DNA of 41,657 nucleotides, taken from Chiloscyllium plagiosum. Lineage: Eukaryota. Every line of letters starts with the position of its first letter. Position 1 is the stretch's first letter. The stretch is from contig NC_057718.1 of NCBI RefSeq assembly GCF_004010195.1, forward strand, positions 56,447,214 through 56,488,870, read 5' to 3'. Below, in pieces: positions 166 to 40,114 of the stretch. The position numbers and the translations under genes are program-made. The notes under the pieces are model-generated. The model was not told the origin of the DNA, made no database searches, and was given only the letters and a program-made list of their open reading frames with translations.

Positions 166-2734
166 ACTGGCAGGGAAATTTGCTAGAGCTGCTCGGGAGG
201 ATTTAAACTAGTAAGGTAGGGGGCTGGGACCCAGGGAGATAGTGAGGAAAGAAATGAATCTGAGACTGGTATAGTTGAGAACTGAAGCGAATCAAACAGT
301 CAGGGCAGGTAGGACTAATAAATTAAACTGCATTTATTTCAATGTAAGGGGCCTAACAGGGAAGGCAGATGAACTCAGGGCATGGTTAGGAACATGGGAC
401 TGGGATATCATAGCAATTACGGAAACATGGCTCAGGGATGGGCAGTACTGGCAGCTGAATGTTCCAGGAAGGATAGAAAGGGAGGCAAGAGAAGAGGGGG
501 AGTGGTGTTTTTGATAAGGGATAGCATTATGGCTGTGCTGATGGAGGAGATTCCCGGAAATACATCCAGGGAAGTTATTTGGGTGGAACTGAGAAATAAG
601 AGGAATGATAGTCAGAGGGAAATCGAGAAACAAACTTGTAAGGAGAAATGAGATAACGAGAATCCAGAGAAAGTAGATTCTTGTTAGGGTGAAAGGAAAG
701 GCTGGTAGGTATAGGGAATGCTGGATGACTAAAGAAATTGAGGTTTGGTTTAGAAAAAGAAGGAAGCATATGTCAGTATAGACAGGATAGATAGAGTGAA
801 TCCTTAGAAGAGTATAAAGGAAGTAGGAGTATACTTAAGAGAGAAATCAGGAGGGCAAAAAGGGGACATGAGATAGTTTTGGCAAATAGAATTAAGGAGA
901 ATCCAAAGAGTTTTTACAAATACACTAAGGAAAAAACTAGGGAGAGAAGAGGGCCCCTCAAAGATCAGCAAGGCGGCCTTTGTGTGGAGCCGCAGAAAGT
1001 GGGGGAGATACTAAATGAGTATTTTGCATCAGTATTTATTGTGGAAAAGGATATGGAAGATATAGACTGTAAGGAAATAGATGGTGACATCTTACTAAAG
1101 TCCATATTACAGAGGAGGAAGTGTTGGATATCTTGAAATGGGTAAAAGTGGATAAATCCCCAGGACCTGATCAGGTGTATCCTAGAAATCTGTGGGAAGC
1201 TAGAGAAGTGATTGCTGGGCCTCTTGCTGAGGTATTTGTATCATCAATAGTCACAGGTGAGGTGCCGGAAGACTGGAGGTTGGCTAACGTGGTGCCACTG
1301 TTTAAGAAAGCTGACAAGCCAGGGAACTATAGACCAGTGAGCCTGACGTTGGTGGTGGGCAAGTTGTTGGAGGGAATCCTGAGGGATAGGATGTACATGT
1401 ATTTGGAAAGGCAAGGACTAATTAGGGAGAGTCAACATGGCTTTATGCATGGGAAATCATGTCTCACAAAGTTGATTGAGTTTTTTTAAAGAAGTAACAA
1501 AGAGCATTGATGAGGGCAGAACGGTGGACGTGATCTATATGGACACCAGTAAGGCCTTCAACAAGGTTCCCCATGATTAGTAAGGTTAGATCTCACAGAA
1601 TACAGGGAGAACTAGCCATTTGGATACAGAACTCACTCAAAGGTAGAAGTCAGAGGGTGGTGGTGGAGGGTTGTTTTTCAGACTGGAGGTCTGTGACCAA
1701 TGGAGTGCCACAAGGATCGGTGCTGGGTCCGGTATTTTTCATCATTTATATAAATGATTTGGATGTGAGCATAAGAGGTATATTTAGTAAGTTTGCAGAT
1801 GACACCAAAATTGGAGGTGTAGTGGATAGCGAAGAAGGTTATCTCAGATTATAACGGGATCTTGATCAGATGGGCCAATGGGCTGAGAAGTGGCAGATGG
1901 AGTTTAGTTTACATAAATGTGAGGTGCTGCATTTTGGGAAAGCAAATCTTAGCACTTAATGGTAAGGTCCTAGGGAGTATTGCTGAACAAAGAGACCTTG
2001 GAGTGCAGGTTCATAGCTCCTTGAAAGTGGAGTCACAGGTAAATAGGATAGTGAAGGAGGCATTTGGTATGTTTTCCTTTATTGGTCAGAGTATTGAGTA
2101 NNNNNNNNNNNNNNNNNNNNNNNNNNNNNNNNNNNNNNNNNNNNNNNNNNNNNNNNNNNNNNNNNNNNNNNNNNNNNNNNNNNNNNNNNNNNNNNNNNNN
2201 NNNNNNNNNNNNNNNNNNNNNNNNNNNNNNNNNNNNNNNNNNNNNNNNNNNNNNNNNNNNNNNNNNNNNNNNNNNNNNNNNNNNNNNNNNNNNNNNNNNN
2301 NNNNNNNNNNNNNNNNNNNNNNNNNNNNNNNNNNNNNNNNNNNNNNNNNNNNNNNNNNNNNNNNNNNNNNNNNNNNNNNNNNNNNNNNNNNNNNNNNNNN
2401 NNNNNNNNNNNNNNNNNNNNNNNNNNNNNNNNNNNNNCCTGGGGTCGGGGAGTCCAGAACTAGAGGTCATAGGTTTAGGGTGAGAGGGGAAAGATATAAA
2501 AGAGAACTACGGGGCAACGTTTTCACACAGAGGATGGTACGTGTATGGAATGAGCTGCCAGAGGAAGTGGTGGACGCTGGTACAATTGCAACAGTTAAGA
2601 GGCATTAGGAAGGGTTTGGAGAGATATGGGCCGGTTGCTGGCAAGTGGGACTAGATTGGGTTGGGATATCTGGTCGGCATGGACGGGTTGGACCGAAGGG
2701 TCTGTTTCCGTGCTGTACATCTCTATGACTCTGT
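166..2734 (+). mobile_element. Degraded CR1/HER1-type LINE ORF2 (APE endonuclease + RT) with 3'UTR
   Basis: Fragments LNCIYFNVRGL/IIAITETWL (EN), KSPGPD, NYRPVSLT, QHGF, GVPQGSVLGP, KFADD, TRGH, and a CTCTATGACTCT tail; several frameshifts and stops. Confidence 0.92.
2101..2437. other. Assembly gap (337 N)
   Basis: Run of N inside the LINE. Confidence 1.
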
Positions 2735-9419: not shown

Positions 9420-9670
9420 TCTATCAACAAACACATCGACCTTGACCCAATATACCAGCCACTGCAGCGGACAGCTGGAACTGACAACCGGAAGCGGCAA
9501 AGACAAACCACTATAAATACCGGAGGAAACATCGCAGAAGCGCTTCACAGGAGGCTCCCAAGCACTGAGGATGTCACCTAGACAGGGGATGAAACGTCTG
9601 CAACACAAATTACCAGCTAGGCGAACAGAACCACAACAACGAGCACCTGAGCTACAAATCTTCTCACAAA
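9420..9670 (+). mobile_element. Penelope-like terminal repeat (pLTR) with a TATA-like box and hammerhead motif
   Basis: TATAAATA at 9512-9519 and a hammerhead core at 9565-9598; its last ~48 nt recur at 10514-10561. Confidence 0.65.
9562..9601 (+). ncRNA. Minimal type-I hammerhead ribozyme motif
   Basis: GCA-CTGAGGA-T-GTCACCT(AGAC)AGGGGAT-GAAA-CG-TC-TGC: stem I GCA/TGC, stem II with one mismatch, GUC triplet. Confidence 0.7.
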
Positions 9671-12953: not shown

Positions 12954-13382
12954 GTGTTCACCGTTGAAGCCATGATGCCTTATGTACAACACCTTAAAGG
13001 GGCCCACAGTAAGAATCTGTTTCTGAAAGACAAGAAGAAAAAAAGCTTATGGTTAGTGACAGTCTTACACAACAGACAAATCAACTTGAATGACCTAGCA
13101 AAGAAGCTGGGCTGTGGAAGTGGAAATCTGCGCTTTGCAGATGAAGGAACAATGCTGGAAAAATTAAAAGTTGGTCAAGGTTGCGCAACACCTCTTGCTT
13201 TGTTTTATGATAAACAAGGTGATGTAAAATTTGTGCTAGATTCAAACTTCGTGGATGGAGGACATGAAAAAATCTATTTTCATCCAATGATTAATTCAGC
13301 CACTATGGGTATTAAGCCTATAGACTTCTTGCATTTTGTGAAGGAAACAGGACATGAACCTACAATTGTAAAGTTTGATTAA
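12954..13382 (+). CDS. PRORSD1: PRORSD1 coding exon 2; prolyl-tRNA synthetase-associated domain protein 1 (ProXp-ala/YbaK-like aminoacyl-tRNA deacylase), 170 aa in total
   Basis: Acceptor tttgttttttctgtag|GTG. Translation contains HLKGAHSKNLFLKDKKKK, GSGNLRFADE, KVGQGCATPL (GXXXP loop) and FHPMINSATMG. TAA stop at 13380-13382. The ORF track's initial M is really the spliced GTG (Val). Confidence 0.95.
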   Translation: MFTVEAMMPYVQHLKGAHSKNLFLKDKKKKSLWLVTVLHNRQINLNDLAKKLGCGSGNLRFADEGTMLEKLKVGQGCATPLALFYDKQGDVKFVLDSNFVDGGHEKIYFHPMINSATMGIKPIDFLHFVKETGHEPTIVKFD

Positions 13383-20472: not shown

Positions 20473-21690
20473 TTGATGATTTGGAGATGCCAGTGTTGGA
20501 CGAGGGTGTACAAAGTTAAAAATCACACAACACCAGGTTATAATCCAACAGGTTTAATTGGAAGCACTAGCTTTCGGAGTGCTGCTCCTTCATCAGGTGG
20601 TTGTGGAGTACACCATTGTGTGACATTGTAAGACACAGAATTTAGAGCAAAAGTTTACAGTGTGATGGAACTGAAATTATACATCGAAAAATACCTTGAT
20701 TGTTTGCCAAGTCTCTCATCTGTTAGAATGACCATGTTAGTTTCTTTCATATGTAAATTGCAAAACATTTTTAAAAAGTTACATTATCAAGTGAACTTTA
20801 ACAATTTTGTGTCAGCCCAGATAATGCATTGAAGGTGTTAGCACCCCTGTGTGCTGCTGTCTGTGCCATAATGTTGAGACTGATTCTAATCTAAAAAAAT
20901 GAATTAACAGAATTTTACATGGATTCATGCAGTTTTTGAGAAAAGTACAATGTAACTCTGCAAGTATAAATTCACCCCATAAACCTATGTGTATGTGTGC
21001 GTGTGTGGGTGGGGGGTTGGTTGTGAGTGCCTGTGAGAGAGTATATGTGTGTGTGTCAGTGTAAAGGGGTATAAGTCTGTGAGAGGGTACGTGTGTGTGT
21101 GTGGGATAGTGCAATGGGGGTCGCCTGTAGTGTGACATGAACCCAAGGTCCCAGTTGAGGCCATCCCTATGGTATCGAACTTGGCTCTCAGCCTCGACTT
21201 GGCCACTTTTCGCTGCTGCCGGTCCCAAAGTCTGCCTTGGAGGATGGTCACCTGAAGGTCCGAGGTCGAATGTTCTGGACCGCTGAAGTGTTCTCCAACT
21301 GGGAGGGAACACTCCTGTCTGTTGATTGTTGTGTGGTGCCCATTCATCCATTGCCGTATCCTCTGCTCAGTTTCACCAATGTACCATGCCACAGGGCATC
21401 CTTGCCTGCAGCATATGAGATAGACAATCTTGTCTGAGTCACATGAGTACTTGCCATGTACATGATGGGAGGAGTCCCCATGCGTAATGGTGGTATCCAT
21501 GTCCATGCTCTGGCTTGTCTTGCAGCGTCTACCATGACAGGGTTGTATGGAGTTGCCCTGAAAGTCTGACAGTTTGCTACGAACAATGATCTTTTTGAGA
21601 TTTGGTGGTTGTTTAAAAGTGAGCAGTGGAGGTGTGGGGAAGGTCTTGGCGAGGTGTGCATCCTCATTGATAATGTGTTAATTATCAATG
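20473..21690 (-). mobile_element. Penelope-like element 3' portion (GIY-YIG endonuclease, (CA)n-rich spacer, pLTR with hammerhead)
   Basis: GKYSCDSDKIVYLICCRQGCPVAWYIGETEQ...MNGH (ORF 20985-21506 on -); VGEHF remnant; hammerhead at 20565-20599. Confidence 0.9.
20565..20599 (-). ncRNA. Minimal hammerhead ribozyme motif, intact core
   Basis: On -: CAC-CTGATGA-A-GGAG(CAGCA)CTCC-GAAA-GC-TA-GTG. Perfect stems I (3 bp) and II (4 bp), palindromic AGCT stem III, CUA triplet. Confidence 0.8.
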
Positions 21691-22099
21691 AGGATAAGCA
21701 CCTCGCCAAGACCTTCGGAGGTCAACTGAAATGAAGTGTCATGATTTCTTGTTGCTCTAGTGTATGGCAAGCAGGCTTCCCACAAGCTAAGAATGGTTCT
21801 GAAACCCTCCTGGGCAAAGCTCAGAATACCTTCCAGATATGAATTACAAAAGATTCCATTGGATAAAGATTGCATGCCAAGAAAAGGGGGGAAAAAAGCA
21901 AAGTGAGGCAGAAAATCCTAAGGAAATAAAAAAACAATGAGTATATTGTTCGGGGACTTTGGAGGCAGTGTGGGAATATAACTGATAAACTTTTAAAAAG
22001 GAGAAAGAAAAGATTGATAAATCAGTTTTCCAATTAAAAGATTAATAAGGTAGCAACCTGAAGCTGGAATACTACTGAGTCTTAATTAATGTGAATCAT

Positions 22100-26165: not shown

Positions 26166-27516
26166 CAGTGAATTATTTCTTCTATTCATTTGTGGGATGT
26201 GGGTGTTGCTGGCCTGTCTCCAGGTATTTATTTATTGCCATCCCGAGTTGCCCTTGAGAAGGCGGTGGTGAGCACCTTGTTGAACTGCTGCAGTCCACCT
26301 GTTGACTTACAATGCCATTAGGGAGGGAGTTCCAGAATTTTGACCCAGTGACAGTGAAGGAATGGCAATATATTTCCAAGTCAGGAGGGTGAGTGGCTTG
26401 AAGAGGAACTTGAAGGTGGTACTGTTCCCACATATCTGCTGCCCTTGTTCTTCTAGATAGAAGTGGCCATAAGTTTGGAAGGTGCTGTCTGAGGATCTTT
26501 GGTGAATTTCTGCAGTGCATCTTGTAGATAGTACACACCGCTGCTACTAAGCATTGGTGGTGAAGGGAGTGGATGCAGTGCCAATCAAATGGACTGCCTT
26601 GTTCTGGATGGTATCAAGTGTCTTGAGTGTTGTTGGGGCTGCACTCATCCAGGCAAGTGGGGAATATTGCATCACACTCCTGACTTGTGCATTGACGATG
26701 GTGGACAGGCTTTGAGGAATCAGGTGAGTTACTTGCTGCAATATTCCTGGCTTCTGACCTGTTCTTGTAGCCAATGTTTATGTGGTGAGTTCAGTTGAGT
26801 TTCTGGTCAATGACAATCCCAAGGATATTGACGGTGGCAGATGCAGTGATGGTAACACCGTTGAATACCAAGGGATAGTGTTTAGATTGTCTCTTATTAG
26901 CCTGGCATTTGTGTGTCGTGAACGTTACTTGCCACTTGTTAGCCCAAGTCTGGATATTGTTCATCGTATTGCATTTGGATACTGACTGCTTCAGTGTCTG
27001 AGTCATCCTGAATGGTGCTGAACATTTCACAATCATTGGCAAACATCCCAACTTCTGACCTTATGATGGAGGGAAGATTATTGATGGAGCAGCTGAAAAT
27101 GGTTGGGCCTGGGACACTACACTGAGGATCTCCTGAAAAGATGTCCTGGAGCTGAGATGACTGACCTCCAACGATCATTACCATCTTCCTATGTGTCAAT
27201 TCCAGTTTTGATAGGGCTCCTTGATGCCACACTCGGTCAAATGCAGCCTTGATGTCAAGGGCTGTCACTCTTATGTCACCTCTGGAATTCAGCTCTTTTG
27301 GCTGTGTTTGGACCAAGGCTGTAATGAGGTGAGGGGTTGAGAAGCCAGGGCGGAACCCAAACCGGGCATCACCGAGCAGGTTATTGCTAAGCAGCTGCAC
27401 TGTTGCAGACACCTTCCATCACCTTGCTAATGATAGAGAGTAGACTGATGGGACTGATGGGACAGTAATTGGCCAGATTGGATTTATCCTGCTTTTTATG
27501 TACAGGACATACTTTC

Positions 27517-28771
27517 AACTTTCCACTGACACCCTCCTTCGACTGACTGAACTGGTCCTCACCCTGAACAACTTCTCTTTCCAATCCTCCCACTTCCTCC
27601 AAACCAAAGGAGTAGCCATGGGCACCCACATGGGCCCCAGCTATGCCTGCCTCTTCGTAGGATATGTGGAACAGTCCATCTTCCGCAGCTACACTCGCAC
27701 CACCCCCCCAACTTTTCTCCGCTACATCGATGACTGTATCGGCGCTGCCTCGTGCTCCCACGAAGAGGTTGAACAGTTCATCCACTTTACCAACACCTCC
27801 CACCCCGACCTCAAATTCACCTGGACAGTCTCAGATTCCACCCTCCCCTTCCTCGACCTTTCTATTTCTATCATTCACCAACACCTTCCACCCCGACCTC
27901 AAATTAACCTGGACCGTCTCAGACTCCTCCCTCCCCTTCCTAGACCTCTCCATTTCTATCTTGGGCAAATGACTCAACACAAACATTTACTACAAACTGA
28001 CCGACTCCCACAGCTACCTGGACTACACCTCCTCCCATCCTGCCCCCTGTAAAAACGCCATCCCATTCTCCCAACTCCTTCGTCTCCGCCGCATCTGCTC
28101 CCAGGAGGACCAGATCAAAATACGTACAACACAGATGGCCTCCTTCCTCAAGGACCGCAATTTCCCCCCCGACATGGTCGACGGTGCCCTCCACCGCATC
28201 TCCTCCACTTCCCGCTCCTCCGCCCTTGAGCCCCGCCCCTCCAACCGCCACCAGGACAGAACCCCACTGGCCCTCACCTACCACCCCACCAATCTCCATG
28301 TACAGCGCATCATCCGCCATCACTTCCGCCACCTCCAAACAGACCCAGCACCAAGGATATATTTCCCTCCCCTCCCCTATCAGCTGTCCGTAGAGACCAC
28401 TCCCTCCGCGACTCCCTTGTCAGATCCACACCCCCCACCGACCCAACCACCACTCCCGGCACCTTCCCTTGCAACCGCAGGAGGTGCAACACCTGCGCCC
28501 ACACCTCCCCCCTCACTTCTCTCCAAGGCCCCAAAGGAAAATTCCATAGGAGGTCAAGGGAGGCTCTGGCCTATCACCCTCACCTTGACCTCCTTCCACA
28601 TAACGCATTTCCAATGCCCCTCCCCCAAGTCCCTCCTCCCTACCTTTTATTTTAGCCTGCTGGACACACTTTCCTTATTCCTGAAGAAGGGCTTATGCCT
28701 GAAACGTCGATTCTCCTGTTCCTTGGATGCTGCCTGACCTGCTGCGCTTTTCCAGCAACACATTTTCAGCT
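27517..28771 (+). mobile_element. 5'-truncated Penelope-like element (RT core + pLTR) flanked by a 9-bp direct repeat
   Basis: LVLTLNNFSF..HFLQTKGVAMGTHMGPSYACLF..FLRYIDD..LPFLD. CATACTTTC occurs at 27508-27516 and 28772-28780. Confidence 0.93.
28677..28712 (+). ncRNA. Minimal hammerhead ribozyme motif in the Penelope pLTR
   Basis: ATTC-CTGAAGA-A-GGGC(TTAT)GCCT-GAAA-CG-TC-GATT; GUC triplet, weak stem I. Confidence 0.7.
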
Positions 28772-30216
28772 CATACTTTCCACTTTGTTGGGTAGATACC
28801 AGCGTTGTAACTGTTCTGGAGCACAAGTCTTCAGCACTATTGCTGGAATGTTATCAGGGCTCTTAGCCTTCACTGTATGCAATGACTCCAATTGTTTCTT
28901 GATATTCATGTGGAGTGAATCAAATTGGCTGAGGACTGGTATCTGTAATGCTGGGGTCAATGGGAGGAGGCAGAGATGGATAATTCACTTGGCACCTCTG
29001 GCTGGATTGCTGCAAAAATTTCAGTCTTATCTTTTGCATTGATGTGCTGGACTCTAACATTGAGGATGGGGATATTTGTGGAGCCGCCTCCTCCAGTGAG
29101 TTGTTTAATTGTCCACCACTATTCACAACTGAATGTGGCAGGACTACAGAGTTTAGATCAGATCCGTTGGTTGTGGGAATACTTAATTCTGCCTAACACT
29201 TGCTGCTTGGCGTGCAAGTAGTGCTGTTTGGTTGCTTCACCAGATTGACACCTCATTTCAAGAATACCTCGTGCTGTTCCTGGCTTGATGGTAATGGTTG
29301 AGTGGGGAATATGGCGGGCCATGAGATTTCAGATTATGCTGGATTACAGTTCTGCTGTTGTTGATGGCCCTCAGTGTCTCATGGATGTCCAGTCTTGAGT
29401 TGCTAGATCTATTCAAAGTCTGTCCCGTTGAGCACAATGATAGTGCCACACAGCATGATGAAGGTTATTCTCAATTTGAAGGTGGGTCTTTGACTCCCAA
29501 GAACAGTGCGGTGGTCACTCTTACCAATACTATCATGGACAGATACATCTACAGCTGGCAGATTAGTAAGGATGAGGTAAAGTATGTTTTTCCCTCTTGT
29601 TGGTTCCCTCATCACCTACTGCAGACCCAGTCTAGCAGCTATGTTTTTTAGGACATGACCAGCTCGACATGTAGCTGCTGTTTAGCCACTCTTGGTGGTG
29701 GATATTGAAAATCCCCCACCCAGAGTACATTTTGTGCCCTTGCCATTTTGTGCTCCGTCTCAACTATATACCATTGTGCTGCCACCTCTTGCCAGGTTTG
29801 TCCTGCCAGTGGGATGGTGATGTATGGGACATTGTCTGTAAGTATGATTCTAAGAGTTTGACTTTTGTCAGGCTGTTGCTCAAGACAGCTGAGACAGCTA
29901 TTCCAATTTTGGCACTACTCCCCAGATGTTAGTAAGGACGACTTTGGAGGGTCAATGGGGCTGTTTCTGTCGTCATCTTTTCTGGTGCCTAGTTTGATCA
30001 CAGGTGATCCATCCAGTTTCATTTTTTTTTGAGACTTTGTAGTGATTGATACAACTGAATGGTTTGCTAGGCCATTTCAGAGGGCAATTGAGAGTCAACA
30101 ATGTTGCTGTGGGTCTGGAGTCACACGTAGGCCAGATGAGGATGGCAGAATGTGGAAGAGATTCAAAAACATTATTTCAGGGTCAGAAAACTTAGTTATG
30201 TAGGTAGAATATGTAG

Positions 30217-30531
30217 CTGAAAATGTGTTGCTGGAACAGCGCAGCAGGTCAGGCAGCATCCAGGGAACAGGAGAATCGACATTTCGGGCATAAGCCCTTC
30301 TTCAGGAATGAGGAAAGTGTGTCCAGCAGGCTAAGATAAAAGGTAGGGAGGAGGGCTCCACCCTACCTTTTATCTTAGCCTGCTGGACACACTTTCCTCA
30401 TTCCTGAAGAAGGGCTTATGCCCGAAACGTCGATTCTTCTGTTCCCTGGATGCTGCCTGACCTGCTGCGCTGTTCCAGCAACACATTTTCAGCTCTGATC
30501 TCCAGCATCTGCAGACCTCACTTTCTCCTCC
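30217..30531. mobile_element. Non-autonomous palindromic Penelope-derived element with 15-bp TSD and two oppositely oriented hammerheads
   Basis: Arms 30215-30353 and 30356-30494 are reverse complements with 3 mismatches. AGGTAGAATATGTAG occurs at 30202-30216 and 30532-30546. Hammerhead cores at 30404-30431 (+) and 30278-30305 (-). Confidence 0.9.
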
Positions 30532-31293
30532 AGGTAGAATATGTAGTCAATCTGAAACTGTTTTTCTTGGAGAGTGTTGAGAAGAGATTTGATAGAGGTA
30601 TCCAAAATTATTTGGGGTCTGGACAGAGTAGATGGGGAAAATTTCCTATTAGAACTGGAGAGCACAGATGACTGGTAAAAGCAGCAATGGCCTTTGGAAG
30701 GAAAATCTTCATGCTGCGAGTATTTAGAATTTGGAAGGCACTGCCTAAGTGTAATTGTTACAAAGTCAATAGAGTATATGTTCATTTTAAGACAGAAAAT
30801 GTTTTCTGAATTTATAAAGTAAATTTAAAGTACAGCCACAGCTGCAGAACAGAACAGCTAAAAGATGGGCTGTCCCAAAGTAGATATATGTAGCAAATGG
30901 CTGTTAAATGAGTACCTGAGTTTTGGTTGCTGTTTTGACAACAATTCAAATTTAACCAATTAATATAAATTATGCCCAGCATACTAAAACTCAGTTGAGT
31001 TTGAATTTATTGTATTGGCAACATGACAGGTTACAGTATTGGGTGGTACAAAACCAGGACATTTGAAAATGGGTCAGAGCAACTGCCACCGAACAGCAAA
31101 GCAACTGCCATGGAGCTGGAGAGCTAACTGCCCACTGAACATCTTGCTCTCAAAGAAATAAGGCGGCACCCTATATCAAAAGGTACCTTTTCCTGCAGAA
31201 GTAGTAAAAATGATGACCCAGGGAGATCAGGTGAAAGATAGAAGACAGTGGAGAAGACAGAGACTACGTGGACTTAAATCTCAAGTTTATGTA

Positions 31294-35161: not shown

Positions 35162-35428
35162 CTAGATTGAAGCATCATTGAAACTACTGCTTAAAGTTTC
35201 AGAAAATTGAAAGACACTTGCAGATGTTTTTGCTGGTAGAGGAACTTGGACGATACATATGGGAGATGTTCTGCCATGAGACTGAGATGAAGAAGAAATT
35301 GAGCTTTCACTAGAACTGCTCCGAGTCTCTGTACTTGTGCTACTTTTCTTCATCTTTCGTCTCTTTGCCAAAGGAGCGTTTTCAACACTTTGGAGGAAAA
35401 ATCCTTCTCTCTTGCACTTATTAACAGC
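35162..35428 (-). CDS. RPS6KA5-like: MSK-family kinase last coding exon (AVNKCKREGFFLQSVENAPLAKRRKMKKSSTSTETRSSSSESS...DASI*)
   Basis: Acceptor ttctactttag|GCT; 89 codons including TAG. Has the MAPK-docking/NLS motif LAKRRK and an MSK1-type Ser-rich tail. Confidence 0.93.
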   Translation of the reverse strand, partial: AVNKCKREGFFLQSVENAPLAKRRKMKKSSTSTETRSSSSESSISSSSQSHGRTSPICIVQVPLPAKTSASVFQFSETLSSSFNDASI

Positions 35429-36144
35429 CTAAAGTAGAAAGCAATACTCAAAATATAATATAGTCATAACAAATGTAACATTACATAAAATATTCTTGAA
35501 AGATTTCCTGACATCCTAGTTAAATGCATTGGAGAACTGTAGGATGATGGGATTAATTTAACTGTTCACAATGTGAGGTTGTCTAATTTTGATAAAGTTT
35601 TCAATGCTGACAAGGTGATACCACATATTCTTTCCAATTGCCAATTTTTCCCAAGCTACTTCCAGCTCTAAAACAGGTGTGGTGTGCACCAAGAAACATG
35701 AGAAACCAGGTATGTAAAATGCCATAAAGAATTATTTTTAGCTTGTCAATTTTCCAGCCTTCTCTTCTGAAGGTTTTCAACTTTGTGATGGGGTACAGTT
35801 CAAAAAGGTAGAAGGCAACCTCTACTATTTCATCCATGTGGCTATTATTCATGAACAAATTTCTAGCAGTTCAATTTTCTAGACTTAAATCCAGATGCCA
35901 ACAACTATCTAGTTACCAACTACTGGATGGCCTCAGCAACTTGTTGGAACATGGTCACATTTGAAATATATAAATAAGCTAGAACTTACATTGTGGGAAG
36001 GGGACATAATGTTTCAAGCTAATCCTAACATTTGAGTAGCTTTGTAAATGTGATATTTGTGTTTACTTCATGAATAATAGTGCACTATATTTGAAAAATC
36101 TTCAAAATAGTTTTGATTTTTTTGAAAAGAACACTGCTTTGGAG

Positions 36145-36342
36145 CAAAATCTGAAAGAACTGTGGATGCTAAAAATCAGAAACAAAAACCGAAATTGCTG
36201 GAAAAGTTCAGCAAATCTGGCAGCATCTGTGGAGAGTAATCAGAGTTAATATTTCAGCTGCAGTGATCCTTCCTCAGAAGAGTTCTCTTCACAGATGCTG
36301 TCAAACATGCTGAGCTTTTCCAGCAATTTCAGTTTTTCTTAC
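36145..36342. mobile_element. Short inverted-repeat element of the Penelope-terminus type with a degenerate hammerhead on -
   Basis: GAAATTGCTGGAAAAGTTCAGCA..TGGCAGCATCTGTG pairs with CACAGATGCTGTCA..TGCTGAGCTTTTCCAGCAATTTC; the spacer on - reads CTGAGGA-A...GAAA. Confidence 0.7.
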
Positions 36343-36417
36343 TGCCTTGGAATAAACTGACAAAACAATGCAGAGACATTGCTGTAATATTATCATTCCA
36401 GTTTAATTTCTGATTTA

Positions 36418-36597
<180 letters not shown>

Positions 36598-36610
36598 TCA
36601 TATGTACTGT

Positions 36611-37287
36611 CATTCTAAAATATCCCAAATAGATACAGGTATATTAAAAAAAAAATCCCTGGTATATTTTTATGAATGTATGTGTATTATCTATATGTAC
36701 ATTTACTTGTAAATAATAAATAAGCAACATATTAGTTTACATAAATGTCTTTTGTTGCAACACTACCTGAGCAATTTATTTGCAATTTTAAAATTGAAAG
36801 GTACATTACCTTGCACCAGCTCTTTAGCTTCTTGAGAAACATTGTTCCAGACTTCTCCAGCAAGCGAGTAGTTTCCCTCTTTTGTTGTTCTTGTTTTTTC
36901 ATCAATACTCGATATCACAGTTCGCTGCATATTTTGGAAAGGAATCAGTCCAGACAACATTGTATACTAGAATGCAACAAAATACATAACCATTATAATT
37001 GGCTATTTTCAAAGCAATGGAACATAGTAAATATTTGGGTAATTAGGAATTATATGTAGTCCCATTCTAATCTTTAAAAGATTCCAAATAGATAAAGGTA
37101 CATTTAAAAAAAACTATTCCCTGGTCTACTTTTATCTACGTATGTGTATTATCTATACATATGTACACATTTGTAAATAATAAATAAGCTACATCATTTA
37201 GTTTACATAAATGTGTTTTATTGCAACACTACCTGAACTAGGTTTCTAAGTAATGGAAAATGTAGTAAATATTTGGGTAATTAGGAG
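36611..37287. repeat. Local direct duplications around a kinase exon: ~160-175 bp at 36611-36770 and 37063-37236; ~35 bp at 37016-37049 and 37252-37287
   Basis: Shared CCAAATAGATA, GTATGTGTATTATCTATA, TTGTAAATAATAAATAAGC, TTAGTTTACATAAATGT and TTGCAACACTACCTGA; the second pair shares TAGTAAATATTTGGGTAATTAGGA. Confidence 0.9.
36810..36966 (-). CDS. RPS6KA5-like: MSK-family kinase exon (YTMLSGLIPFQ...WNNVSQEAKELVQ-G)
   Basis: Acceptor cattctag|TAT, donor CAAG|gtaatg; 157 nt, phase 0-1; in frame with both neighbouring exons. Confidence 0.9.
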
Positions 37288-37499
37288 GAAGCATCAATCT
37301 CACAGATTACCTTTCTAATTAGATGATTGTTGCTCCATATATAAAAAATGTTAGACAGCATCAGAAAAAAGATTTTGGCGAAGTTTGGGGAGGTGACTAT
37401 ATCCTGTAGCAGAACATTAAATCTGCCACTTCTTTTCCTTTCTCCACTTGAAATTCTTGGCAGTGACAACTTAGTCTGGACGGCCAAGGAATGGCATAA

Positions 37500-37800
37500 A
37501 ATCAACAAGTGTGGAACTGGAAAAGCACAGCCGGTCAGGCAGCATCTGAGGAGCAGGAGAGTTGACATTTCAAGCATAAGCTCTTCTTCAGGAGCGTGGG
37601 GGTGCCCAAGGGGGTTGAGAGATAAATGGGAAGGGGATGGGCTGGGGTGGTGTAGGAAGCTAGGAATGCAATAAGTGGATGAAGGTAGGGGGTGATGGTG
37701 ATATGTTGGAGTGGAGGGTGGAGTGAATAGGTGGAAAGGAAGAAGGACAGATAGGACAGTTCAAGAGGGCAGTGCCAAATTAGAGGGTTGGATCTGAGGT
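37500..37800 (-). mobile_element. Penelope-type terminal repeat fragment with hammerhead-like core (~37564-37591), sense to the kinase pre-mRNA
   Basis: On -: CTGAAGA-A-GAGC(TTAT)GCTT-GAAA-TG-TC followed by GATGCTGCCTGACC.GCTG.GCTTTTCCAG. Confidence 0.72.
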
Positions 37801-37914
37801 AGTTTCCTCATTTATTTTTCATGTAAAATTTTTTTTTAAAAAATCACTTACACCTGGTTTTTCAGCAAATGTGTAATTCAGACTACTTTGGCAGTGTATA
37901 AATTTAGATACTTT

Positions 37915-38375
37915 TAGTAGCAGCAATGTTAATGGACTGGTAATTCAGAGCGATGGACTATTAATCAAGACAAAATAGGATTTCAGATTCTATCACGGTA
38001 CTTTGAGAATTGTATTTCATTTTTTAAAAACCTGGAAATAAAAATTTGGTATCAGTTAAAGTGACATGAAATGACTTGATTGTAATAGCAACCTATTTGA
38101 TTCACTAATGCTATTTCTGGAGAAGAAAACATTAATCTTTGTCTGTATGCCATTCGAGTCTTACACCAATAAGGTTGACTCTTGACTGCATTCTCTAGAA
38201 GCCTGACAATCCATTCAATTACAATGCAACAATCACAAGAAAGAATTGGTTGCAACAATCACAAGAAAGAATTGGTTGCAATAGTCCAAGACAAAGGTTC
38301 ACTACCTTCTTCTGACAACTAGGGGCTGGGTAATGAATCCTGACCTTGTCATTTATATTCACATTTCAGGGTTAA
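37915..38375 (+). mobile_element. Old SINE-like element related to 22360-22681, with a perfect 26-bp tandem duplication at 38225-38276
   Basis: TGGACTGGTAATTCAGAG, TTCACTAATG, GGTTGACTCT and ACAACTAGGG.TGGGTAAT motifs; (TGCAACAATCACAAGAAAGAATTGGT)2. Confidence 0.6.
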
Positions 38376-38559
38376 TTTTTTTAAAAAGTATGGAATAGTC
38401 TTCCAATAAACTTCTGCAAAATTAAAAATAATGGATCAAGGTAATTTTTGTACATTGAGATATCATAATCTGGATTAGCCCCTGCACCACCCGACTCCAG
38501 TAAATGTGTGATTATCTAATTTGGTAGCAAATACAGGAAGAAAATTATCTTAATGGCAA

Positions 38560-39105
38560 TATGTTAAGAAAGTGGTGATGAGCCAGTGAATTCTCTGTCA
38601 CAGAAAATAGTTGTGGTCAAACATTAAAAGTTTTTAAGGAGGAGTTAGATACAGTTTTTAGGGTTAAAGGCATTAAAGGGTACGGGGTGAAAGAAGGAAC
38701 AGATACTGAGCAGGATGATCAGCCACGATCGTATTGAATGGCACAGCAGACTCAAAGAGCCAAATGGCCTACAATTATTTAGAACAATAGAACAATACAG
38801 CACAGAAGTGGTCCTTCGGCCCATGATGTTGTGCTGAACATTTGTCCTAGCTTAAGCACCCATCCATGTACCTATCCAATTGCCGCTTAAAGGTCACCAA
38901 TGATTCTGACTCTGCCACTCCCACAGGCAGCGCATTCCATGCCCCCATCACTCTCTGGGGAAAGAACCTACCCCTGACATCCCCCCTATACCTTCCACCC
39001 TTCACCTTAAATTTATGTCCCCTTATAACACTCTGTTGTACCCGGGGAAAAAGTTTCTGACTGTCTACTCTATCTATTCCTCTGATCATCTTATAAACCT
39101 CTATC
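38560..39105. mobile_element. Two CR1 3' fragments tail-to-tail (+ ~38560-38772; - ~38781-39105)
   Basis: On -: MIEVYKMIRGIDRV...RGHKFKVKGGRY...WNALP with a (TATTGTTC) tail. The + fragment ends CAAATGGCCTAC. Confidence 0.82.
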
Positions 39106-39871
39106 ATTTTATTATTTTATATGTATGTGTGTTAATACTTCCACCGCAATGCTCCACACTGGTTGAAGCTGCAAGCTTGTACTGTAGCAATTACATTAGG
39201 ATAAATTAATTAATCTGCTGCTCCTGGGAGGAAATTACACTCAAAAAAGAAAGTTTAAATCAGAGATACAGTGCAAACCTGCATGAATCGGTTTTGAAGA
39301 AAAAAATCTGTTCACACTGGGAACATAGATTTGATGAATTTACTCATGTACCTGCTGCAACACATTTTATTTTGAATAGTACAAGATACCACAAGTGAAA
39401 TCACAGATATAACTTGCATCTCTTTTTATTATTATTTCATTGTACCTTTCGATTTATAAATTTGGTAAAGTATGTTGCACAAGTCTTTTATAGGGCCATG
39501 CCATTAAATAAATTAGCAAATTTTCTTCCATGTAAACTTTCTGGTCACTGAAGGCACGAAGATCTTAGAGTTGGGAAATGAAAAACTTTTCCCATACTCA
39601 CTTACAGAAATAAGATTAGGATAAAGTTTGTAAACTGGCTATTTTTTATAGCCTTTCCAAGTATGACTACAATTGTGTGTTAATTTCTGATACACTATTT
39701 CATTTAAGGTGATGTGTATGGAATTCCTAAAAGCATTGCAAGATTTGGACTTTCATTTTGCTTGGACTTTTGGAACTTAAATCCTACACATGAAAGGACA
39801 ACTATTGAATATGCAGCAATATCAATTCTTCCTTCACAAATGTTTGAATGATACATAACTCAAATATTTTA

Positions 39872-40114
<243 letters not shown>

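Follow-up and report, generated by a model that had tools for sequence, protein, structure and literature searches.

A 315-bp palindrome in the 41,657-nt stretch of DNA analyzed here (the window) is confirmed as a real feature, and is best read as a one-off, dead insertion of an endonuclease-bearing Penelope-like element (PLE), made in trans by the RT-GIY-YIG protein of the family (probability roughly 0.85). The product would consist of an inverted 5′-truncated pseudo-LTR (pLTR), a forward pLTR and a 37-nt tail between 15-bp target site duplications (TSDs), and is most likely an ordinary, textbook minimal PLE insertion in an already published layout. The two hammerhead motifs that it carries appear to be passengers, and a read-through RNA would bury each of them. 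Coordinates are collected in Table 1.

Table 1. Features of the palindromic insertion and of related PLE copies in the window
Feature	Position	Strand	Remark
Left TSD	30202..30216	.	15 bp, 67% AT; last 2 nt common to left arm
Left arm, inverted tail-less copy of PLE 3′ pLTR	30215..30353	-	From arm comparison
Two unpaired G, centre	30354..30355	-	Reverse complement of left arm matches the upstream copy through both
Right arm, forward 5′-truncated copy of PLE 3′ pLTR	30356..30494	+	From arm comparison
37-nt unpaired PLE tail	30495..30531	+	Right end only; hundreds of family copies end at 30528-30530
Right TSD	30532..30546	.	Sister-species contig alignment begins at its first base
Minimal type-I hammerhead core	30404..30431	+	CUGAAGA, extra A, 4-bp helix II, GAAA, palindromic CG, UC
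Minimal type-I hammerhead core	30278..30305	-	Helix-III palindrome decayed, ACGU to AUGU
Same-family 5′-truncated PLE copy, 1,255 bp	27517..28771	+	RT/thumb remnant, tail-less 3′ end, 9-bp TSD
Older-subfamily head-to-head PLE stub	36141..36344	.	Tailed arm 36141-36282 and tail-less shorter arm 36285-36344

Sequence comparison within the window delimits the insert at 30217-30531, with identical 15-bp repeats on either side. The repeat is not extendable, and it is the sole 15-mer repeated at a spacing of 330 among the 41,256 window positions tested. The two 139-nt arms are mismatched at three pairs (30271/30438, 30281/30428 and 30349/30360). In the preliminary description of this DNA, the element had been given 139-bp arms with three mismatches, a 2-nt centre, a 37-nt extension and a perfect 15-bp TSD, and every one of these figures is exact. 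In the family sequence, the left arm runs on through the two central G residues; the junction between the arms is therefore blunt, with neither inserted bases nor microhomology. The only N run in the window (2101-2437) lies far from the palindrome. Across the end of the tail and the beginning of the TSD, positions 30521-30534 resemble a plus-strand 3′ splice acceptor, with a pyrimidine run, CAG and G.

With 95-96% identity, the arms match the 3′ end of a same-family copy lying 1.4 kb upstream of the palindrome; the left arm differs from it (28631-28771) at 6 of 141 positions and the right arm at 7 of 139, which bears out the earlier description of the arms as near-identical to a Penelope terminus at about 28640-28771. 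The upstream copy is flanked by its own 9-bp TSD (27508-27516 and 28772-28780), and the outer end of the left arm falls on the same nucleotide as the end of this independent insertion, a coincidence to the base that supports the reading as a one-off insertion. Its open reading frame remnant matches the RT profile PF00078 with an E value of 5e-4, below the cut-off, and has its best relatives among shark proteins (58-77% identity), the top matches being labelled Chiloscyllium punctatum, and the host is accordingly taken to be a shark. GIY-YIG (PF01541) is listed for 5 of the 82 relatives; the upstream copy itself lacks the GIY-YIG part, and its RT and thumb region is broken. The RT remnant together with the GIY-YIG-bearing relatives indicates that the arms represent the pseudo-LTR of a PLE with an endonuclease. 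The open frame crossing the tail may conceivably be an ORF start; translation of arm plus tail gave no match under an E value of 0.09 against the 82 PLE proteins. An arm 20-mer matched 17 loci, and these matches were discarded as chance because all alignments were just 20-26 nt long. The upstream copy also holds an 88-bp tandem duplication (27786-27960), is embedded in an older LINE remnant, and shows an 11-bp inverted duplication (28549-28593) where it skips from the linker to the 3′ end, bypassing GIY-YIG.

Four of 24 listed sequencing runs, those with small shares being left out, were aligned to 30316-31000: X1 and X5 are DNA of organism A from two studies, X9 is DNA of organism B, the sister species, and X21 is RNA of organism A. 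The contig evidence from these runs comprises 24 of 1,124 loose ends and 15 of 95 joints, and the counts below refer to the rows listed. The PLE family of the palindrome is very abundant, with a summed depth in X1 of about 1e6 to 1.7e7 on the element and about 50 on the flank, which is not to be read as a copy number. Loose ends behind 30528-30530 were found in 709 contigs of X1 and 713 of X9, with 240 in X5 at 30529, and the sequences beyond them are unrelated flanks; the right end of the palindrome is thus the modal 3′ end of the family, at the tail. Family copies also begin at 30400-30401 next to unrelated flanks (80 contigs in X1 and 59 in X5). Contigs listed with loose ends at 30355 (27, 31 and 29) go on as ordinary pLTR. 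The tail-less end is absent from the 24 of 1,124 loose ends listed, and the central junction is spanned by none of the 24 contig pieces. One record of X1 (record 5) crosses the junction between tail and TSD with 24 letters on the element side, the bridging rule of the tool being 31 letters; X1 may be the assembly's own sample, and the listed piece of X5 stops short of this junction. Both arms carry G at 30472, where T makes up 90% (X1 and X5) and 98% (X9) of the aligned depth, and C at 30446, where T makes up 95% in organism B. These shared minority alleles suggest that the arms derive from one subfamily, mostly specific to organism A, and thus probably have a common source subfamily or template. 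The commonest form of the family appears to be a stub of about 130 nt running from 30400 to the tail end; depth rises about tenfold at 30400. The sequence TCATTCC at 30400, which we take to be initiator-like, would place the start of this stub at its A. Head-to-tail 132-nt joints linking 30530 to 30399 were seen in 5 contigs of X1 and 1 of X9 among the joints listed.

The sister species helps to place the insertion in time. In X9, a 468-nt contig (record 20) can be aligned from 30910 down to 30532; its match stops where the right TSD begins, and 90 letters stay unaligned; the direction of its coordinates is our interpretation, based on records 4 and 18. Because a break at this very base is what an empty site predicts, the orthologous site is very probably empty in the sister species. 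Organisms A and B diverge at 10 of 378 flank positions (2.6%) and the arms at 3 of 139 (2.2%; Fisher p 1.0). Such similar values fit an insertion soon after the species split that has not been homogenized since, and there is strong reason to date it after or near that split. The insert had been called, as one option, a young fold-back insertion product: a single inverted product is indeed what we find, whereas "young" has to be tempered, the arm divergence being about that of the sister-species flanks.

Each arm had been said to carry a hammerhead core of the form CUGAAGA-A-stem II-GAAA-NG-UC, and a descriptor search finds one such minimal core per strand, beginning at 30404 (plus) and 30305 (minus), with the refinement that the minus-strand palindrome has been lost. 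In the standard hammerhead numbering, from which positions 9, 10.1, 11.1, 15.2 and 16.2 are taken here, helix II of the plus-strand core is closed by G10.1-C11.1, and cleavage is predicted after 30431. The sequence features of a PLE minimal hammerhead (conserved core, extra base between 9 and 10.1, G10.1-C11.1 and palindromic 15.2/16.2) were all found on the plus strand, whereas 15.2/16.2 on the minus strand is a non-palindromic U-G wobble, the change from ACGU to AUGU being CpG decay that loses the dimer palindrome. The window holds six strong hits, against a mean of 0.017 in 60 shuffles (maximum 1), and three of the six belong to the subfamily of the palindrome. An Rfam search of the whole window returned no hammerhead match at the gathering score, and none of the 22 hits at E<=10 over 30150-30600 came from a hammerhead family; the latter search yielded miRNA-type matches, all sub-threshold. 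The palindrome RNA folds with a z score of -32.9, and 0 of 100 shuffles folded as well. A read-through RNA is predicted to form a 139-bp duplex of -290.7 kcal/mol, and the DNA hairpin was computed at -180 kcal/mol. The proposal that the hairpin masks its own ribozyme was borne out in silico: helix II pairing, at 0.89-1.00 when an arm is folded by itself, is down to 0.00 in the full RNA, where enforcing it costs 20.5 kcal/mol. With one ribozyme per strand, each downstream of its own complement, a dimer in cis would be impossible.

Other PLE remnants lie in the window, which contains at least nine PLE-type hammerhead motifs in 41.6 kb. The stub at 36.1 kb has a layout like that of the palindrome with a different centre; its tailed arm carries a hammerhead remnant, and the arms start at different points, one 5 nt ahead of the core and the other a short way past the cut. 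The 38-nt asymmetric centre of this stub contains the hammerhead remnant. TSDs sought for four other PLE stubs gave 6-7-bp candidates only, at chance level, and were rejected. A minus-strand PLE endonuclease remnant (about 20.5-21.7 kb) has a 36-bp inverted duplication at its 5′ truncation point (21639-21716), and its hammerhead (core at 20596) carries the palindrome AGCU instead of ACGU. More minimal motifs, at 9565, 22161, 25199, 36277 and 37591, belong to other PLE subfamilies and have an altered helix II that still pairs.

For the way in which the insertion arose, we favor, at about even odds once a one-off insertion is accepted, a twin-primed mechanism in which both nicks are extended. 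The enzyme would nick both strands 15 nt apart and extend both 3′ ends, the bottom-strand primer starting at the end of the tail and the top-strand primer at its start with 2-nt pairing. These two primer starts would correspond to the RT start sites seen in vitro for the anole PLE, which bracket its tail. Both antisense cDNAs would stop within 2 nt of each other and be joined head to head, either by an end-to-end template jump or by snap-back of the top-strand cDNA, with repair afterwards. Priming at both ends would cover both the extra centre bases of the palindrome and the longer tailed arm of the 36.1-kb stub. Against it, the centre (30354-30356) differs from the common 5′ end of the family (30400), and with the centre off the usual 5′ end, two cDNAs stopping together need either one shared broken template or snap-back.

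A serious rival within the one-off reading, which we hold to be quite possible, is the family of fold-back models: a single cDNA would prime itself after folding back, or an antisense template would be used, as proposed for rotifer PLEs, and the endonuclease would resolve the product at the start of the tail. The near-perfect symmetry with a 2-nt offset is what a fold-back gives, the minority alleles are common to both arms, and the published text provides both the rotifer model (Arkhipova et al., 2013, PMC3846280) and "EN-mediated resolution" (Craig et al., 2021, PMC8557442). However, the extra centre bases lie on the tail-less arm, and a cDNA started at the tail end would lose the bases just used as template; moreover, the longer arm of the 36.1-kb stub is the tailed one, so that a single simple polarity does not fit both. 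Points at 30431-30441 are joined to 30400-30401 in 5 of the 12 joints listed, in all three DNA runs. These joints, together with the stubs, allow the bolder view that the latter are in vivo records of twin priming from the two RT start sites, with arms reaching the template's 5′ end, be it the transcription start at 30400 or the ribozyme cut at 30432; we regard this as rather unlikely. Should the joints prove to be inversions, the genome would bear witness to in vivo cutting of PLE RNA by the minimal hammerhead, but a cDNA that folds back through helix I is expected to give almost the same point as the ribozyme cut. The palindrome itself, whose centre lies 45 nt further upstream, is no such case.

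A propagating non-autonomous palindromic family, one whose entire 315-bp hairpin would be copied into RNA and put back by the PLE protein with its centre intact, seems improbable. In its favor, PLE pLTRs in cis can mobilize other sequence in trans (Arkhipova et al., 2013, PMC3846280), family copies are very numerous, and head-to-tail 132-nt joints occur elsewhere. Yet the common ends of the family are 30400 and 30528-30530 and not this centre, the listed contigs ending at 30355 continue into pLTR, and the second head-to-head stub of the window has another centre. In addition, the anole protein requires RNA about 55-60 nt past the RT start (ORF +172 vs. +111-118; Frangieh et al., 2024, PMC11167929); by analogy, RNA from a copy that stops at the tail would not extend so far. 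The junction 22-mer was absent from metagenome contigs, a weak test in a collection without shark PLE. Since recurrent arm stops allow independent PLE insertions to share a junction, finding the same junction with other TSDs would not be fully decisive. Least probable of all is an assembly or library artefact, that is, a fold-back chimera. PLE inverted structures are reported to trouble assemblies (Craig et al., 2021, PMC8557442), and the centre is unspanned in the 24 contig pieces listed; nevertheless, the arms differ at three sites, one of them a CpG transition, a chimera would not be expected to bring a 15-bp TSD, a one-sided tail and two canonical family ends, no N lies nearby, and the sister contig breaks exactly at the TSD.

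Only slightly more credible than an artefact is co-option of the palindrome, be it to supply long dsRNA for ADAR or Dicer or to serve as structural DNA. The predicted RNA duplex and DNA hairpin would suit such a role, as would the position of the palindrome: the last coding exon of an RPS6KA5-like minus-strand gene ends about 4.6 kb before it. On the other hand, no X21 read fell in 14 of 30 bins, including the bin beside the right TSD and 30615-30890 (a weak point, with about 2% of a poly(A) single-cell run sampled), 95% of the aligned X21 reads continue into other loci, the site is apparently empty in the sister species, and the arms have diverged without homogenization. In the same 2% sample, no RNA read lay on the single-copy flank. 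A-to-I editing was considered and rejected: X21 shows A>G at 18 places vs. 7-11 in the DNA runs, but C>T, T>C and other changes are equal or higher, and the reads stem from many loci. Transcription through the locus, ADAR or Dicer action, cruciform formation, small RNAs and co-option found no support. The RPS6KA5 (MSK1)-like kinase exons (35165-40114, minus strand) and a stretch free of introns that encodes a PrdX/YbaK tRNA-editing domain (12954-13382, plus strand) are convergent, with the palindrome between them, 17 kb past the PrdX-like ORF. An AT-rich intron duplication (36616-36770 and 37075-37236, spacing about 460 bp) flanks one kinase exon.

As a locus, the palindrome matters little, being one among very many PLE stubs in the genome. 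TSD-bounded stubs with an empty site in a sister species are nonetheless a good natural data set on PLE biology, serving the questions of how the inverted pLTR and one-sided tail are built and whether the hammerhead cuts in vivo. Short PLE products can also be misfiled as MITEs or miRNA hairpins.

MITEs are short non-coding elements with terminal inverted repeats at both ends, beside a TSD of fixed length. The palindrome is likewise short, non-coding, hairpin-forming and TSD-flanked, but its inverted repeat stops 37 nt before the right TSD, its TSD is long and variable in the family (15 vs. 9 bp), and its arms are the 3′ end of a retroelement. Animal retrozymes are defined by two or more hammerhead units in tandem (Li et al., 2026, bioRxiv 10.64898/2026.07.22.740005); non-LTR retrozymes share the origin from a PLE pLTR, the type-I hammerhead and a size of about 300 bp, but are head-to-tail with at least two consecutive units, whereas the palindrome is head-to-head with one per strand. 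Both identities are rejected, as both definitions fail, and with them goes the earlier suggestion of a minimal retrozyme or MITE-like unit: each strand has a single ribozyme and tandem units are absent, the inverted repeat falls short of the right end, the TSDs of the family are 15 and 9 bp, and family copies commonly end at other points. Retrozyme-like dimers may exist at other loci, as the 132-nt head-to-tail joints hint, and the 15 joints listed for X21 gave no read support for circular RNA, a poly(A) library being unsuited to it. No shark palindromic PLE stub was found in the literature searched, which mostly excluded subscription papers and Repbase/Dfam entries; supplementary figures of the PLE papers cited here may show ORF-less stubs like this one.

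The known systems nearest to the palindrome are PLEs themselves, and the statement that these carry minimal hammerheads and inverted copies matches the published layouts (Arkhipova et al., 2013, PMC3846280; Cervera and de la Pena, 2014, PMC4209133; Craig et al., 2021, PMC8557442). In Schistosoma, dual minimal hammerheads on opposite strands lie 100-700 bp apart, and a single minimal motif was reported to give no cleavage (Cervera and de la Pena, 2014, PMC4209133). The palindrome shares with that class the core, the extra base at 9/10.1, G10.1-C11.1, the palindromic 15.2/16.2, the absence of loop 3 and an opposite-strand pair about 100 bp apart; its helix II has 4 bp vs. 7-8 bp in the Schistosoma families, its helix I is weak with 3 of 5 pairs, and one of its two copies has lost the helix-III palindrome. 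In the anole PLE, the protein nicks and extends each of the two strands, has two RT start sites bracketing the tail, and needs RNA beyond the start site, ribozyme cleavage being dispensable; anole RNA-seq showed no reads ending at the ribozyme cut (Frangieh et al., 2024, PMC11167929). The palindrome resembles this Poseidon element (PAc) in its pLTR hammerhead, its AT-rich target and a tail with a recurrent 3′ end on either side, at 63 and about 98-100 nt past the predicted cut; the inverted join is not known to have been reconstituted with the anole protein.

The closest likeness is to insertions of endonuclease-bearing PLEs. These have an inverted 5′-truncated copy immediately adjoining the 5′ end, with a 30-40-bp tail that is often confined to one end (Craig et al., 2021, PMC8557442), and Pen2a_Av has an inverted pLTR, a 31-bp tail on one pLTR and a 9-bp TSD; for rotifer PLEs, TSDs of 8-10 bp are described, and an antisense template with self-priming is proposed (Arkhipova et al., 2013, PMC3846280). 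The palindrome shows the same head-to-head inverted 5′-truncated pLTR with a palindromic junction, the same one-end tail of 30-40 nt (37 nt here) and a TSD of variable length (15 bp, and 9 bp in the upstream copy), its 15 bp exceeding the rotifer range. With neither an ORF nor a second direct pLTR between its arms, it is the smallest form of this layout.
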